In this document: positions 39,446 to 63,222 of the stretch, one piece after another | How positions within the stretch are numbered: position 1 is the first letter of the stretch | Layout: the number at the start of each line of letters is the position of its first letter | Assembly: GCA_028344675.1 (NCBI GenBank) | Contig: JAOMBT010000002.1 | Location: 830-64,829 of the forward strand | Length of the DNA stretch: 64,000 bases | Source of the DNA: Acidimicrobiaceae bacterium | GTDB taxonomy: Bacteria > Actinomycetota > Acidimicrobiia > Actinomarinales > Actinomarinaceae | Reading direction: 5' to 3' | Notes under the pieces: model-generated | The model's database searches: none | What the model saw: the letters and a program-made list of their open reading frames with translations, nothing else | Told to the model about the DNA's origin: nothing | Translations under genes and position numbers: made by a program

Positions 39446-40260
39446 ATTATTACAATCTATATGTGATATTAATTACTAAATTAAAGATATTCATCGCAAA
39501 ATATTTGTTAATTTTCATAAGTTTTTTTAAAAATATAGACATCAATGAATTCACCCGTAAGGGGATAAAGTGGCACACTCCTCTTAATGATATCGTAGGT
39601 TTAAGTCTGTATCTTTTAGGAAGTTTTGAAAAGCATAATGTTAAAAAAGTAAGTAAGTACATAAACAATGGGACAACTGTAATCGATATTGGAGCAAATA
39701 TTGGCACATTTACCATTGGTCTTTTAAAAAGATGCCCAGAAAAGATTGAAAAAATAATTTCCTATGAACCTGAAAAAAAGAACTATAAGAATCTCAAGAA
39801 AAATATAAAAGAGAACAACCTGGAGTCAAAATCAGAAGCCTTCAACAAGTTTGTAGGGCTTGGCAACGTAGATAAAATAACAAGCAACTATCCTCTCATA
39901 CATAAAGGACCTAAGGTTCAAAATATTTACTATGGGCTAAAGGGAGACTATAAAGGTGTTCAATCTAGTAATTTGGATGAGATTAATTTCGATGCAAATA
40001 AAAATTATTTTATAAAAATAGATGTTGACGGATACGAAGCTGAAGTCATGTCAGTAATAAATAAAAAGTTAAAGTTTCGACCGACTATTTTAATTGAAGT
40101 TAATAAAGTATTGTTGGATGAAATAGAAGTAGAATATTTAGTAGAAGTGTTTGAAAAAAATAATTACAAATTTGTTTATTTTGGTAAACAACTTTCACCA
40201 AAAATTATATTAAATGATTTTCGAAAAATTGGATTAGATTTGATAGCAGTTCCTGTTTAA
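39418..40260 (+). CDS. FkbM-family methyltransferase
   Basis: VIDIGANIGTFTIGLLKRC (the DxGAN.G SAM motif) and NYFIKIDVDGYEAEVM (the IKIDVEG motif). Confidence 0.75.
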   Translation: MKLEFGFFSYYYNLYVILITKLKIFIAKYLLIFISFFKNIDINEFTRKGIKWHTPLNDIVGLSLYLLGSFEKHNVKKVSKYINNGTTVIDIGANIGTFTIGLLKRCPEKIEKIISYEPEKKNYKNLKKNIKENNLESKSEAFNKFVGLGNVDKITSNYPLIHKGPKVQNIYYGLKGDYKGVQSSNLDEINFDANKNYFIKIDVDGYEAEVMSVINKKLKFRPTILIEVNKVLLDEIEVEYLVEVFEKNNYKFVYFGKQLSPKIILNDFRKIGLDLIAVPV

Positions 40261-42623: not shown

Positions 42624-42779
42624 ATTATGGAGTAGATATGGTTTATCACGACATCATATCAATATTAATTTTTTCAACTGTCATCTATTTAGTTTATAGG
42701 CTTTACAAAAGGTTTTAATTTTTCTACAAAATGTGGGCTTGAGTGGTTTTTTGTAGGGTATATTTCTGAAAAACCCTTG

Positions 42780-42853
42780 TGGGCGCTACAGGATTTGAAC
42801 CTGTGACTTCTTCCTTGTAAGGGAAGCGCTCTGCCGGACTGAGCTAAGCGCCC
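42780..42853 (-). tRNA. tRNA-Val (anticodon TAC)
   Basis: The reverse complement is GGGCGCT-TA-GCTC-AGTCCGGC-AGAGC-G-CTTCC-CTTACAA-GGAAG-AAGTC-ACAGG-TTCAAAT-CCTGT-AGCGCCC-A. No CCA (followed by CAA). Confidence 0.85.
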
Positions 42854-58829: not shown

Positions 58830-59876
58830 ATGTCTAAAAATGTATTAGTAATTGGTACGGGCACAATAGGGGAACCACTCATAGGTCTCTTAGCTGAACA
58901 TAAAGAAATACTAGGTTTAGATAATGTTATATTTTTTAAACGAACTCCTCTATCGGATGAAAGAGGGAAAGTTGAAGCTCTATTAAGAAAGGGAGCACAA
59001 ATTGTATCAACTTCAGATGTCTTATCAGATTTTACTGAACTAGGTTTTTCGAGTATTTATGATGTAGAAAAGGCATATCAGGATGCTGATGTAATTATTG
59101 ACTGCACACCAAGTGGAAACAATAACTGGGATAATATTTACTCCTCTCTTGATGAAAACAAAAGGTACTTAGCACAGGGATCTGAACATGGATTTGGTTC
59201 CTTTTTTGCTTGGGGAATAAATAACGAAATCCTTGAGAATCAAGCTAATAAATATTTAATTGCATCTTGTAATACTCATAACATTGCATCGATAGTTAAA
59301 GCTTTTGCATTAGACCAGAATCGTGAATTGGCAGAAGGAAGATTTGTGTGTTTAAGAAGAGCAAATGATGTATCTCAAAATGATTCTTTCTCTCCTTCAC
59401 CAACAATTACCAAGCATACAAATCAAGAATTTGGAACACATCATGCACGAGATGTACATGAATTGTTTGCACAAGAAGGAAAAGATTTAAACCTTTTTTC
59501 TTCAGCAATTAAATTACCAACACAATATATGCACACTCTTTGGTTTACGTTAAATTTTAATGATCAAATTCAATTTGAGGATATTATAGAAAACCTAAGA
59601 GGTAATCAATTTTTAATGAGTACAGAGAAAATGTCATCGAATAAAGTGTTTTCTTTTGGTAGGGATCATGGCTATCACGGTAGGCTATTATCCCATGGTA
59701 TTGTCGCAGAACAGTCACTTCATGTAAAAGATAATGTACTCACAGGTTATTGCTTTACGCCTCAAGACGGAAATGCATTATTGTCATCAGTCGCAGCAAC
59801 AATACAGTATTACTACAAAAACGATTGGCAAAAGAAAATGGAAGTTTTTGATCGTTATATTTTTAAAAATATATAG
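58830..59876 (+). CDS. NAD(P)-binding oxidoreductase resembling type II (archaeal-type) glyceraldehyde-3-phosphate dehydrogenase
   Basis: N-terminal VLVIGTGTIGEPLIGLL Rossmann motif. LIASCNTHNIASIVKAF matches the type II GAPDH catalytic SCNTT motif. 348 aa. Assignment is tentative (ASADH-like enzymes share the Cys-x-Asn arrangement). Confidence 0.4.
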   Translation: MSKNVLVIGTGTIGEPLIGLLAEHKEILGLDNVIFFKRTPLSDERGKVEALLRKGAQIVSTSDVLSDFTELGFSSIYDVEKAYQDADVIIDCTPSGNNNWDNIYSSLDENKRYLAQGSEHGFGSFFAWGINNEILENQANKYLIASCNTHNIASIVKAFALDQNRELAEGRFVCLRRANDVSQNDSFSPSPTITKHTNQEFGTHHARDVHELFAQEGKDLNLFSSAIKLPTQYMHTLWFTLNFNDQIQFEDIIENLRGNQFLMSTEKMSSNKVFSFGRDHGYHGRLLSHGIVAEQSLHVKDNVLTGYCFTPQDGNALLSSVAATIQYYYKNDWQKKMEVFDRYIFKNI

Positions 59877-60252
59877 TCAGACAAGATTATATTATAACAC
59901 ATACTTATTTCACAAACAACTATAGCTTGTGCATATTGTATATTTAAGATACAGCCTGTGCAAAATACCTCTAGAGTTAAATTAGCTACAAGGGGGAAAG
60001 CTGGATCATTTAGGAGAGTGTTACTAGACGTACGGTAACACTATAAAAATTTCAAGAGCCAGCCCAGAATCTTGCAAAGACCAAATATGAAATAGGGATT
60101 TCTGGAGCTGGTTCTTTTATGCAAAAAATGTATAAAAAAAGCTCTCAATTTTCACATTTACTACTTAACTGTGCTATTTTTTTTATATGCAAAAATTAAA
60201 CGTTGTGAAAGTGGTGGTTTACATACATATGTAATGCCCTTATGCAACATTT

Positions 60253-60283
60253 TTTGATACCGGGCAGATGCCCGGTTTTTTTA
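60253..60283 (+). terminator. Rho-independent terminator hairpin (CCGGGCAGATGCCCGG followed by TTTTTTTATTTT) inside the aceA 5' leader
   Basis: GC-rich inverted repeat ccgggca/tgcccgg followed by a 7-T run. It lies ~95 nt upstream of the aceA start and 377 nt after the previous gene. The position fits an attenuator/expression platform or an sRNA 3' end. Confidence 0.55.
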
Positions 60284-60364
60284 TTTTAGGAAGGAAAAAA
60301 ATGAAAGAACAAGAAAGTAGCCATAGAAAGACTAACAATATACATAAGACCAAGTCAGATCTTT

Positions 60365-61660
60365 ATGAGAGTCTTTACGATGGAGAATAATTTTTTAGAT
60401 GCTGAATCGCTAAAAAACGATTGGGATACTAATCCTCGATGGAGGGGTATTACTAGGAACTACAGTGCTGAAGATGTGATAAGTATTCGAAACTCTGTAG
60501 AAATTAAACATACTCTTGCGGAAAATGGTGCTCAAAAACTCTTTGAAGATTTAAACAAAAAGGATGAATGGATATCAGCACTTGGTGCTTTATCTGGTAA
60601 TCAAGCTGTTCAAATGGTAAAAGCTGGTCTCAAAGCAATTTATTTGAGTGGATGGCAAGTTGCTGCCGATTCAAATCTTGGCGAGACAACTTATCCAGAT
60701 CAATCACTTTATCCAAGCAATAGTGCCCCAACACTTGCAAAACGCATTAATAATGCCCTATTAAGAGCAGAACAAGTAGATCGTGTAGAGGGAAATAACA
60801 GTATTGATTATCTTGTACCAATAGTGGCAGATGGTGAAGCAGGTTTTGGTGGAACGCTTAATGTATTTGAATTAACCAAAAAATTTATTGAAGCTGGAGC
60901 TGCAGGTGTGCATTTTGAAGATCAATTAGCTGCGGAAAAAAAATGTGGACATATGGGCGGTAAAGTATTAGTTCCAACTAGTCAACACATTAGGACCCTT
61001 ACCTCAGCAAGGCTTGCATCTGACACCATGGGTGTTCCAACTGTAATAATTGCAAGAACAGATGCATTGGCAGCAAACCTTGTCACGAGTGATATTGATG
61101 AGATCGACAGTGACTTTGTATTAGGTGAGAGAACTTCAGAAGGATTCTTTAAAGTAAAAAATGGTCCAGAGTCTGCAATTAGTAGAGGTCTCTCTTATGC
61201 CCCGTACTCTGATCTTGTATGGTGTGAAACTGGAAAACCAGATATTGGGTTTGCAAAAGAGTTTGCTGATGCAATACATGAAAAATTCCCTGATAAATTA
61301 TTAGCTTACAATTGTTCACCTTCCTTCAATTGGAAGCAATCACTTTCAGATGATGAAATAGCTACATTTCAAGAGAAATTAAGCTCTTTTGGGTATAAGT
61401 TCCAATTCATTACTTTGGCAGGATTTCACGCTCTTAATACATCTATGTTTGAACTTGCAATGAAGTACAAAGGTGGAAATATGTCTGCATATGTTGAACT
61501 TCAACAGAAAGAGTTTGCATTAGAGAAAGATGGATTTACATCTGTTAAACACCAGAGAGAAGTGGGTGCAGGTTATTTTGATACAATCTCTACAATCATA
61601 AGTGATGGAGATGCTTCAACACTTGCTCTTAAGGGTTCTACAGAAGAGGAACAATTTTAA
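60365..61660 (+). CDS. aceA: Isocitrate lyase
   Basis: [16 protein letters not shown] (cf. E. coli PRWEGITRPYSAEDV) and the [11 protein letters not shown] catalytic signature. Alternative start ATG at 60380 (MENNFLD...). Confidence 0.9.
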
Positions 61661-63222
61661 TGTTTAAAATAAATGATTCAACAAACTCAGAAAGTGTCAT
61701 TAATGATGACTCACTAGAATTTTTTGAAAAGTTTATTATTTCTTTTGATAAAAGACGTAAAGAACTTTTAGAAAAAAGAAATAAAACCCAAGAGTTTATC
61801 TCTAATGGAGGGAGATTCTCCTTTCCAGAAGATACTTCTATTAGAGATAGTGAATGGACTGTAGTTCCACCGCCACAGGATGTAGCCAATAGAAATGTTG
61901 AGATTACTGGTCCTGTCGATCGAAAGATGATTATTAATGCACTCAATTCTGGTGCAGATGTCTTTATGGCTGATTTTGAAGACTCAACATCACCAACTTG
62001 GGAAAATATTGTGAATGGACATGTTAATTTAATAGATGCTAATAAAAGAGAAATATCTTTCGAGAATAAAGAAAAAGGGAAATCCTATTCTCTTAATGAG
62101 GATTCTACAACTTCACTTTTCGTAAGACCAAGAGGATGGCACTTAGACGAAAAAAATGTTACTTACAATAATGAGCCTGTATCAGCTAGCTTGTTTGATT
62201 TTTGTATGTATATATTTCACAATGCTCAAATAAGATTAGATAATAATATTGGAACTTATTTTTATATTCCTAAACTGGAAACAGCCGAAGAGTCTCAGCT
62301 TTGGGATGATGTATTTACACTTGCTGAAGAAGAGTTGAATTTACCAATAAGTACTATAAGAGCAACTGTTCTTCTTGAGACGATTTCTGCATCATTTGAA
62401 ATGGATGAAATCTTATATAGTCTTAAAAACCACTCTTTAGGCATGAATGCTGGTAGGTGGGATTATATTTTTAGCGCTATAAAGAGACACAGAGAAGTTG
62501 AAGGTGTGATATTTCCAGACCGTTCTCAGATAACTATGACCGTTCCATTTATGAAGTCTTACACTGAGTTACTAGTTCAAAGTCTTCATAAACGTGGTGC
62601 ACATGCAATTGGAGGTATGTCAGCATTTATTCCTGATAGAAAAAGTCCTGATATCACCGAAGAAGCTTTTACAAAAGTAAGAAATGATAAAATTCGAGAG
62701 GCTGAAATGGGGTTTGACGGTTCTTGGGTTGCACATCCAGATCTTGTAAAAATCTGTAAGGATATTTTTTCAGAACATCTTGGTGAAGCTGATAACCAAA
62801 TTAGTTATGTTCCTGATTATGTAATTACAGATGACATGTTACAAGACTTCAATATTAAAAATTCCTCTATTACTGAAGAGGGTATTCGTACAAACATAAA
62901 AGTAGGAATTTTATATATTCAATCATGGCTTCTCGGTCAGGGTGCAGCTGCTTTATTTAATTTAATGGAAGATGCTGCAACTGCTGAAATCTCACGTTCA
63001 CAATTATGGCAATGGGTACACAACAATGCCGTAACCGATAGTGGTATTGAAATAAATATTGAATTTATAAAAAAACTAATAGAAGAGGAATTAAAAGAAA
63101 TTAAAAATTTAACTCCAACTAGTGAAATGTTGGATGAGGCAGGTACTCTTTTTGAAGATCTAATTATAAATATAGAGTTTGAAGATTTTTTAACACTTCC
63201 TGCATATAAATTAATTAATTAA
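61660..63222 (+). CDS. aceB: Malate synthase A
   Basis: 520 aa. GRWDYIFS and the GGMSAFIP / WVAHPDLV regions are typical of malate synthase (A type). ATG overlaps the aceA stop. Confidence 0.9.
   Translation: MFKINDSTNSESVINDDSLEFFEKFIISFDKRRKELLEKRNKTQEFISNGGRFSFPEDTSIRDSEWTVVPPPQDVANRNVEITGPVDRKMIINALNSGADVFMADFEDSTSPTWENIVNGHVNLIDANKREISFENKEKGKSYSLNEDSTTSLFVRPRGWHLDEKNVTYNNEPVSASLFDFCMYIFHNAQIRLDNNIGTYFYIPKLETAEESQLWDDVFTLAEEELNLPISTIRATVLLETISASFEMDEILYSLKNHSLGMNAGRWDYIFSAIKRHREVEGVIFPDRSQITMTVPFMKSYTELLVQSLHKRGAHAIGGMSAFIPDRKSPDITEEAFTKVRNDKIREAEMGFDGSWVAHPDLVKICKDIFSEHLGEADNQISYVPDYVITDDMLQDFNIKNSSITEEGIRTNIKVGILYIQSWLLGQGAAALFNLMEDAATAEISRSQLWQWVHNNAVTDSGIEINIEFIKKLIEEELKEIKNLTPTSEMLDEAGTLFEDLIINIEFEDFLTLPAYKLIN

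Follow-up and report, generated by a model that had tools for sequence, protein, structure and literature searches.

Here, we identify a short, conserved leader upstream of aceA and aceB, the genes for isocitrate lyase and malate synthase A, in a 64,000-nucleotide (nt) stretch of contig JAOMBT010000002.1 from an actinobacterium of the order Actinomarinales (the window; all positions refer to it). On comparative grounds, we interpret positions 60172–60390 as the conserved region that controls an operon specific to the Actinomarinales, which comprises a leader open reading frame (ORF), a micro-protein gene (ORF2), aceA, and aceB. Sequence comparison and folding showed how this element is built and conserved, that its stem-loop SL1 covaries, that an alternative pairing exists, and that ORF2 carries a coding signature. 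The element is very probably a cis-acting attenuator of some sort, and we see about an even chance that it is, more specifically, a leaderless, ribosome-mediated transcription attenuator that responds to valine (branched-chain) codons. The sensor is more likely the 15-codon, predicted leaderless ORF at its 5' end than a metabolite aptamer.

Candidatus Actinomarina, the marine OCS155 Actinobacteria of the class Acidimicrobiia, ranks among the smallest free-living bacteria of the sea, and also among the most abundant, and has almost no intergenic DNA. The window comes from Candidatus Actinomarina: its AceA is 98% identical to the proteins of two single-cell genomes (L001, L002), and the best 20 genome matches to it are all from Actinomarinales (20/20). 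Upstream of aceA, the noncoding spacer after the stop codon of a GAPDH-like gene extends over 59877–60364/60379; the 488-nt gap 59877–60364 is the largest in the window without a tRNA gene, whereas the median gap is 7.5 nt on our crude gene map. In published Actinomarina genomes, the median spacer is 3 bp and the coding density ∼97% (10.64898/2026.04.03.716425). With such spacer medians, the retention of a leader of ∼200 nt in a streamlined genome implies that it has a function.

Several lines of evidence assign the conserved element to aceA and to the Actinomarinales. First, in blastn comparisons of the spacer with the 20 Actinomarinales aceA loci, only ∼60172–60380 is conserved in all 20, while 59877–60150 matches only L001 and L002. 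Second, the 5' neighbor varies by lineage: six loci have the GAPDH-like gene in this place, and the remainder have different genes. By contrast, aceB always follows aceA, in 20 of 20 species representatives (L001–L020), which assigns the conserved block to aceA rather than to the gene before it. Third, in other Acidimicrobiia (L021–L080), the gene order is aceB–aceA with a gap of 10–40 nt, and both the leader and ORF2 are absent from the loci compared. The arrangement is, therefore, an innovation of the Actinomarinales; relative to these loci, the Actinomarinales inverted the two genes and gained the leader and ORF2. An earlier note, made from the letters of the window, had described a structured leader of ∼500 nt with an intrinsic terminator upstream of aceA–aceB as a candidate riboswitch or attenuator. 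A conserved cis leader with an intrinsic terminator does precede the two genes; it measures only ∼100 nt (60187–60283). The note overlooked the promoter at 60172–60180, the 15-codon ORF at 60187–60234, and the onset of conservation at ∼60172.

The leader was compared in 25 distinct versions, i.e., the 20 genome loci plus metagenome contigs found by a DNA pattern and by ORF2 homologues. The comparative alignment that the earlier note had proposed shows that the leader is kept among relatives in all of these versions, with covariation in SL1. The DNA pattern used to scan metagenomes for the element was too permissive for GC-rich soil DNA, and among the matches listed (at least 120 loci), five were real, all of them adjoining ORF2/aceA. 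A covariance model built from 11 sequences found exactly one copy per locus and no second copy in the window.

The 5' end of the element is a promoter followed directly by a start codon. The extended −10 element TGCTATTTT (TGnTAnnnT; 60172–60180, plus strand) has specified bases that are invariant in 25/25 leaders, while the "n" positions vary, and a promoter scan placed a −35 region with a TTCACA box at 60149–60156 (plus strand), with an 18-nt spacer and a TATTTT hexamer preceded by TG. In all 25 leaders, an invariant ATG, at 60187 in the window, lies 5–7 nt (mostly 6) after the −10 hexamer, and the 8–10 nt that follow this ATG are unpaired and free to vary. From this spacing, we infer that transcription starts at or near the ATG and gives rise to a leaderless mRNA. 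For mycobacteria, it is well established that mRNAs without a leader are translated from an ATG at the 5' end (PMC4633059).

The invariant ATG opens the leader ORF, which in the window encodes MQKLNVVKVVVYIHM followed by a stop codon (60187–60234, plus strand; 15 codons). Its frame is open in 25/25 leaders, with lengths of 13, 14, or 15 codons. Codons 9 and 10 are GTG GTG (60211–60216), invariant and in frame in all 25 leaders, and one to three more Val, Ile, or Ala codons flank them; each leader peptide has three to five Val codons. GTG is the second-rarest Val codon in the 36 long ORFs of the window, where it makes up 9.8% of Val codons. In the L014 lineage, a third Val codon is inserted at a site where pairing is not needed, and this codon is GTA. 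At all three ORF lengths, the last base of the stop codon (60232–60234 in the window) lies 1–3 nt 5' of an invariant GCC(C). For a tRNA-Val with the anticodon UAC, reading GUG would require wobble, which would fit the idea that GUG is a "hungry" codon. A gene for tRNA-Val with this anticodon, the only tRNA-Val gene of the window, lies at 42779–42853 (minus strand), inside the largest spacer (514 nt).

Downstream of the start region, the leader can form three structures. SL1 (regions 1:2; 60198–60252, plus strand) is a long imperfect stem-loop with the same minimum free energy topology in every lineage. Its 5' strand contains codons 5–11 including GUGGUG, its apical hairpin spans 60219–60234, and its 3' strand holds the invariant GCCC (60236–60239); in all lineages, GUGGUG and GCCC meet with GG across from CC. 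In the alignment fitted with the covariance model, 87.7% of cells are in standard pairs, compared with 25–48% when the partners are slid by 1–3 columns, and 10 pairs have changed on both sides, with six making up the whole apical hairpin and four lying in the basal stem. This alignment includes the L014, L017, and L168 types, which are divergent and did not contribute to the building of the model. The antiterminator (regions 2:3; 60236–60266, plus strand) pairs UGCCC (60235–60239) with GGGCA (60262–60266) of the 5' arm of the terminator. When the 5' strand of SL1 was masked, as a stalled ribosome would do, and the RNA was folded up to the terminator loop, this (U)GCCC:GGGC(A) pairing formed in all lineages, with up to 8 bp in some and energies of −8.5 to −13.9 kcal/mol. 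In the unmasked fold, SL1 and the terminator form together.

The intrinsic terminator (regions 3:4; 60259–60283, plus strand) was found by a terminator scan as ACCGGGC-AGAT-GCCCGGT followed by a T-run. The strong terminator that the earlier note had placed at 60253–60283 is, thus, present, with a stem at 60259–60276 of 7 bp, six of them G-C, and a T-run up to 60282. The six G-C pairs (CCGGGC/GCCCGG) are invariant in 25/25 leaders, and the site is by far the strongest of its kind in the 64 kb and the only terminator-like site with more than three G-C pairs. Only ∼5 nt separate the T-run from the ribosome-binding site (RBS) of ORF2, leaving no space for a further promoter. Because of this distance, aceA must be reached by read-through, and as the interval from terminator to RBS is too short to house a promoter, the element reads most naturally as an attenuator; the conserved leader and terminator directly before aceA–aceB likewise support the attenuator half of the earlier suggestion.

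Altogether, these findings are consistent with a model whereby RNA synthesis starts at the A of the ATG at 60187, or 1–2 bases off, from the extended −10 promoter, so that the transcript would begin with a start codon. A ribosome would then translate the 15-codon leader ORF, in which codons 9 and 10 are the rare Val codon GUG. If charged tRNA-Val is plentiful, the ribosome would reach the stop codon at 60232–60234 and cover the GCCC, the terminator would form, and transcription would end before ORF2/aceA. If there is no translation, GUGGUG would pair with GCCC in SL1, and again the terminator would form. If charged tRNA-Val, or perhaps branched-chain aminoacyl-tRNAs generally, is scarce, the ribosome would stall on GUG GUG and keep the 5' strand of SL1 occupied. 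GCCC, released in this way, would then pair with GGGC in the 5' arm of the terminator, and RNA polymerase would read into ORF2–aceA–aceB. ORF2 would subsequently be translated from its own RBS and aceA by coupling, its ATG lying inside the end of ORF2.

Classical ribosome-mediated attenuators control the trp, his, leu, ilvGMEDA, and ilvBN operons in enterobacteria, and the leu leader of Escherichia coli uses the rare synonymous codon CUA. The Actinomarina leader is similar to these attenuators in several respects: its regulatory codons are consecutive Val codons in region 1 of a short ORF and are of a rare synonymous kind; its stop codon is placed for masking of region 2; region 2 pairs with either region 1 or region 3, with modest energies, in mutually exclusive 1:2/2:3/3:4 pairings; and an intrinsic terminator lies just before the first structural gene. 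By contrast, it is only ∼97 nt long and predicted to be leaderless, it has only two invariant codons and a weak antiterminator, and it controls isocitrate lyase and malate synthase rather than biosynthesis of the amino acid that it would sense. Nor is the leader homologous in sequence to any of the leader models in Rfam. Among Actinobacteria, leader peptides precede ilvB, leuA, trpE, and aroF in Corynebacterium glutamicum (PMC3890552). In mycobacteria, leaderless polycysteine short ORFs attenuate downstream genes as part of a "Cys ribulon," and two consecutive Cys codons suffice (Canestrari et al., 10.1101/834739). This system resembles the proposed one in being actinobacterial, in having a short ORF at the 5' end of the transcript as the first cistron, and in the remodeling of a downstream duplex by a stalled ribosome. 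It differs in that the characterized case unmasks an RBS and acts on translation, whereas the competing structure in Actinomarina is an intrinsic terminator, and in that it uses Cys codons and has targets in cysteine metabolism, whereas Actinomarina would use Val codons and has targets in central carbon metabolism. Mechanistically, the leader most likely groups with leader-peptide attenuators and with actinobacterial leaderless sensory short ORFs, and what sets it apart from known attenuators is its glyoxylate-shunt target, its compactness, and the added micro-protein cistron.

A number of observations weigh against the model of a leaderless, valine-codon attenuator. First, the leader ORF lacks a protein-type substitution pattern, having 7/7/8 variable sites at the three codon positions; such a flat pattern fits a leader peptide and is, on sequence grounds, no proof of translation, and base pairing alone could partly account for the invariance of GUGGUG. 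Second, the structural evidence for SL1 is of uneven strength. The covariation was counted on an alignment fitted to the structure and is, hence, biased toward it; RNAalifold on a plain MAFFT alignment, in which the apical hairpin of the L014 type is misaligned, recovered only the terminator; SL1 gains only modestly in stability over shuffled sequences (z −3.1 to +0.4); and its pairing register slips between lineages. The antiterminator, in turn, is short (4–8 bp) and thermodynamically weaker than the terminator. Third, a search of the window for other leaderless genes confirmed none, and the best candidate (44311, minus strand) was rejected, as it carries its own AGGA Shine-Dalgarno sequence. 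We know of no demonstration of leaderless translation in Acidimicrobiia. Fourth, where transcription starts, that the leader ORF is translated, that ribosomes stall on its Val codons, that termination is conditional, and what the switch means physiologically are all inferred. Finally, isocitrate lyase and malate synthase A neither make nor handle valine. The usual logic of amino acid attenuators is, therefore, not directly applicable, because the targets are not genes for valine biosynthesis, and the valine link, which is indirect and speculative, is the weakest part of the argument.

A possible physiological rationale starts from the nutrition of these bacteria. Branched-chain amino acid transporters of the ATP-binding cassette type are found in 82 of 84 Actinomarina genomes (10.64898/2026.04.03.716425). 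If Actinomarina relies on imported amino acids, a low level of charged tRNA-Val would signal amino acid famine, and this signal would switch on isocitrate lyase and malate synthase as an anaplerotic pair. Actinomarina reportedly lacks both citrate synthase and aconitase while isocitrate lyase is universal (10.64898/2026.04.03.716425), and the role of the enzyme may therefore be unconventional.

The alternative that stands up best is a structured-RNA attenuator with a trigger other than the ribosome, in which a ligand or an RNA-binding protein would act on SL1 and the ORF would be incidental; we regard this as unlikely. It would account well for an architecture of SL1, antiterminator, and terminator whose covariation is independent of translation, for a GUGGUG that never drifts to synonymous Val codons, as expected of a constraint at the RNA level, and for a leader ORF without a coding substitution pattern. 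However, little is conserved beyond AUG, GUGGUG, GCC, and the terminator, while the apical hairpin and all loops change between lineages, leaving no plausible ligand pocket. Nor would a trigger of this kind explain why the AUG is invariant in an otherwise variable single-stranded 5' end, or why the frame is open at three lengths with its stop fixed beside GCC. For the same leader, the riboswitch half of the earlier suggestion is not supported, because the RNA has too little complexity, and varies too much beyond GUGGUG/GCC, to resemble a metabolite aptamer.

Comparisons with known RNA families also argue against a structured receptor. At the gathering score, no Rfam family was found in the window or in seven orthologous loci, and the glycine riboswitch (RF00504) gave no match in 59800–60450 even at E values up to 10; the doubt that the earlier note had itself expressed about a glycine aptamer is, thus, borne out by the Rfam check that it had proposed. 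The sub-threshold Rfam matches (E up to 10) rest on the terminator, i.e., rseX with 26 bits and Leu_leader with 21 bits (gathering score 50 for both). We considered a T-box and rejected it: the 24 nt before GUGGUG leave no room for a Stem I, and RF00230 gave no match at E up to 10. Although "GUGGU" resembles the T-box core (…GGGUGGNACC…), its UGGU lies in SL1 and not in an antiterminator, and the topology is, thus, wrong.

Somewhat less probable still is the alternative that 60187–60283 is an independent gene for a trans-acting small RNA (sRNA) of ∼97 nt, maybe with a dual function through its 15-amino acid (aa) peptide, and that aceA is expressed by constitutive leak through the terminator. 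The element has all the parts of a unit from promoter to terminator, including a stem-loop and a 5' end that is single-stranded and rich in A/U, the sub-threshold Rfam matches are sRNA models that share the terminator, and attenuator-derived RNAs can act in trans, as exemplified by rnTrpL (PMC6614838). Against these points, the unit is always fused, ∼5 nt from the T-run, to the RBS of ORF2–aceA and has no other copy, there is no separate aceA promoter, and the pairing of GCCC with the terminator arm, which is kept in all lineages, would be purposeless in a plain sRNA. Moreover, a role in trans could coexist with attenuation instead of replacing it. The likeness to rnTrpL of Sinorhizobium (PMC6614838) lies in a terminated leader RNA of ∼100 nt with a small ORF that can accumulate stably; the difference is that the Actinomarina leader has no known or predicted target in trans.

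Finally, it is highly improbable that a single leader of ∼500 nt, starting at 59877 and including both upstream hairpins, forms a glycine-like or novel riboswitch, a reading that appears already largely refuted by the comparative data: although these hairpins are statistically real and ∼90% conserved among the three closest genomes, and although SAR11 has a glycine riboswitch that controls malate synthase (PMC5069720), the hairpin block is missing from every other Actinomarinales locus that has the promoter, leader ORF, and terminator, it lies 5' of the conserved −10 box, its own terminator-like hairpin would stop transcripts from further upstream, and no glycine or other riboswitch was matched at E up to 10.

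The hairpin block itself (59990–60122, plus strand) is specific to one lineage. Hairpin A (60017–60042) pairs 60017–60025 with 60034–60042 over 9 bp, with an energy of −10.5 kcal/mol that none of 200 shuffles equaled (z −3.6), and hairpin B (60054–60116) pairs 60054–60073 with 60095–60116 (−25.7 kcal/mol, z −3.6) and is followed by UUUUAU. The earlier note had described the first as a 7-bp hairpin at 60020–60045, and this hairpin is real, with 9 bp at 60017–60042 instead; the second, given as an imperfect hairpin with a U tract at 60055–60118, is present at 60054–60116 and lies outside the conserved leader. The "GGAGAGUGUU" element and the two hairpins that the note described fall away as parts of the conserved switch, because they lie 5' of the conserved promoter and occur only in the window, L001, and L002. 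In these three genomes, ∼200 nt (59937–60135) are inserted between a TTCACA palindrome and the promoter, while L009–L011 and L201 keep the GAPDH-like neighbor without the block and have the TTCACA palindrome directly 5' of the promoter. Identity among the three genomes is 90–91% over 59990–60122 and only 53–58% over the adjacent 59937–59989, and their aceA third codon positions differ by ∼15%. By these comparisons, the block appears mildly conserved, among relatives whose closeness forbids a strong statement. No Rfam family matches it, and neither the other loci compared nor viral contigs contain a copy; a mobile or phage element was, accordingly, rejected as its identity. Two possible roles of the block are that of an insulating terminator, which would shield the aceA promoter from upstream read-through, and that of an orphan small RNA.

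In addition to the leader, the control region contains ORF2 (60301–60390, stop codon included; plus strand), which encodes an acidic micro-protein of 29 aa and is conserved in all Actinomarinales loci. Its Shine-Dalgarno sequence is AGGAAGG in the window (60288–60294, plus strand) and AGGAAGG or GAAAGGA, 6–8 nt before the ORF2 start, in all loci. The ORF2 stop codon overlaps the aceA ATG (60380) by 11 nt (ATGGAGAATAA), and because of this overlap, aceA is probably translated by coupling. The RBS AGGAAGG and the overlap with the aceA start had already been noted, with an ORF end at 60393 that we correct to 60390. Most lineages encode an ORF2 of 28–30 aa, the L014–L020 lineage one of 74 aa; the N terminus is variable, and the C terminus is conserved as (I/L)xxTKxD(L/I)YES(L/F)YDGE followed by the stop codon. 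In its last 16 codons, variable sites are distributed 7/3/15 over the three codon positions, and pairwise synonymous differences number 433, compared with 85 and 63 in the two shifted frames. This substitution pattern implies that ORF2 is translated and that the peptide is under purifying selection. The 30-codon upstream ORF of the earlier note is, thus, conserved and has a coding pattern, as befits a small protein gene rather than a typical regulatory upstream ORF.

ORF2 matched no family in Pfam, NCBIfam, or PDB (the best PDB match, with E = 0.13, is spurious), and its 40 database homologues are all unnamed ORFs from marine metagenomes. Public gene calls of ORF2 often start at an in-frame ATG further 5' and are extended through the terminator or even through the whole leader, giving products of 39–74 aa that start with MPGFFILGRK… or MLFFLYAKIK…. 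These extended calls are annotation artifacts of the longest-ORF rule. A genuine ORF of 70–74 aa that runs through leader and terminator into ORF2 was rejected: its frame is stopped within the leader region in 4 of 15 leaders and, in the window, also by a TGA at 60255–60257, and its synonymous fraction is 0.05. Three short metagenome contigs (L203, L204, and L205) keep the last 12–25 codons of ORF2 together with aceA, and two of them share a "GGAEK" junction peptide. As the ORF2 C terminus is joined to unrelated upstream DNA, with junctions inside ORF2 and one GC-rich upstream part, we judged L203–L205 to be probable chimeric assemblies and set them aside. ORF2 represents a new micro-protein family that is tightly coupled to isocitrate lyase and misannotated by gene callers.

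The acidic character of ORF2 invites a comparison with E. coli, in which acidic residues among the first 30 of AceB make translation of aceB, and by coupling that of aceA, dependent on the ABC-F protein EttA (PMC11282234); the MgtL leader is a further system of this kind (PMC11282234). As in the EttA case, acidic residues lie early in the cistron before aceA, to which translation of aceA is probably coupled; ORF2 has 29 aa with an acidic end, and its 74-aa variant has a very acidic N terminus (MIDENTFYDEEYYEKDDEK). By contrast, the upstream cistron in E. coli is AceB itself and not a dedicated micro-protein, and the two are not homologous. ORF2 as an EttA-type acidic peptide is, by this analogy, an idea and not a result. 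A further extension, which we consider doubtful and a step less probable than the sRNA alternative, is that two ribosome-based sensors are stacked on the isocitrate lyase operon without any metabolite receptor: the Val-codon attenuator would read amino acid status through tRNA charging and gate transcription, and the C-terminal peptide of ORF2, from within the ribosome, would gate coupled initiation of aceA by arrest or destabilization of the kind seen in MgtL and EttA targets. If so, amino acid famine would be tied to an unconventional use of isocitrate lyase, possibly in reverse, i.e., making isocitrate and 2-oxoglutarate from succinate and glyoxylate.

We know of no cultured representative of Actinomarina, and gene regulation in the group is, to our knowledge, next to unknown; if the proposed valine-codon attenuator exists, it would be the first regulatory device proposed for these bacteria. 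It would also extend amino acid–codon attenuation from biosynthetic operons to central carbon metabolism. Tripp et al. reportedly described a glycine riboswitch on malate synthase in SAR11 in 2009. That switch, upstream of the malate synthase gene glcB (PMC5069720), would be a functional analogue, in that an RNA device in an unusually long spacer ties amino acid status to an enzyme of the glyoxylate cycle. It differs in being a metabolite aptamer (RF00504), in the amino acid sensed, and in the gene controlled, and we found no structural or sequence similarity between the two. If true, the attenuator would, thus, be convergent with SAR11, with amino acid status coupled to the glyoxylate pathway at the RNA level in streamlined oceanic genomes. 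The leader also provides an experimental handle on why the cells keep isocitrate lyase though citrate synthase and aconitase are reported missing.

Further upstream, TTCACA-type boxes recur 5' of the leader in the window and in L003, L005, L009, L012, L201, L206, and L209. In most lineages, a tandem TTTCACAAnnKCACAA overlaps the −35 region. In the window, a palindromic box (TTTCACAAAC...GCTTGTGCA; 59908–59936, no strand assigned) is a candidate operator or a weak hairpin; the same TTCACA-N14-TGTGAA arrangement is also found in L009, L010, L012, L201, L206, and L209, and the palindrome sits ∼60–90 nt 5' of the promoter in lineages without the ∼200-nt insertion. The 8-mer of the palindrome is not enriched within the window. 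Judged by this recurrence, the TTCACA boxes are probably sites for a transcription factor. A CRP/GlxR-type reading was rejected, as the orientation and spacing of the boxes do not fit TGTGA-N6-TCACA.

As for the genes of the locus, aceA (60380–61660, plus strand) was assigned to isocitrate lyase by NF011645 with 726 bits (cutoff 562), and aceB (61660–63222, plus strand) to malate synthase A by TIGR01344 with 670 bits (cutoff 594.5). By the scoring of a recent preprint, no more than 20 of 84 Actinomarina genomes have malate synthase (K01638) (10.64898/2026.04.03.716425), whereas malate synthase A follows aceA in 20 of 20 loci here; the thresholds of the KEGG orthology assignment may explain this difference. 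The GAPDH-like gene (58830–59876, with its stop codon ending at 59876) that adjoins the spacer on its 5' side codes for a divergent GAPDH-like protein of type II; models of type II (archaeal-type) GAPDH score far under their cutoffs (84 bits vs. 185), and the activity of the product is uncertain. Over the window as a whole, the G+C content steps from ∼26–29% in positions 1–40000 to ∼32–37% in positions 40000–64000, and a low-GC genomic island, or else a variable region, may underlie this step.

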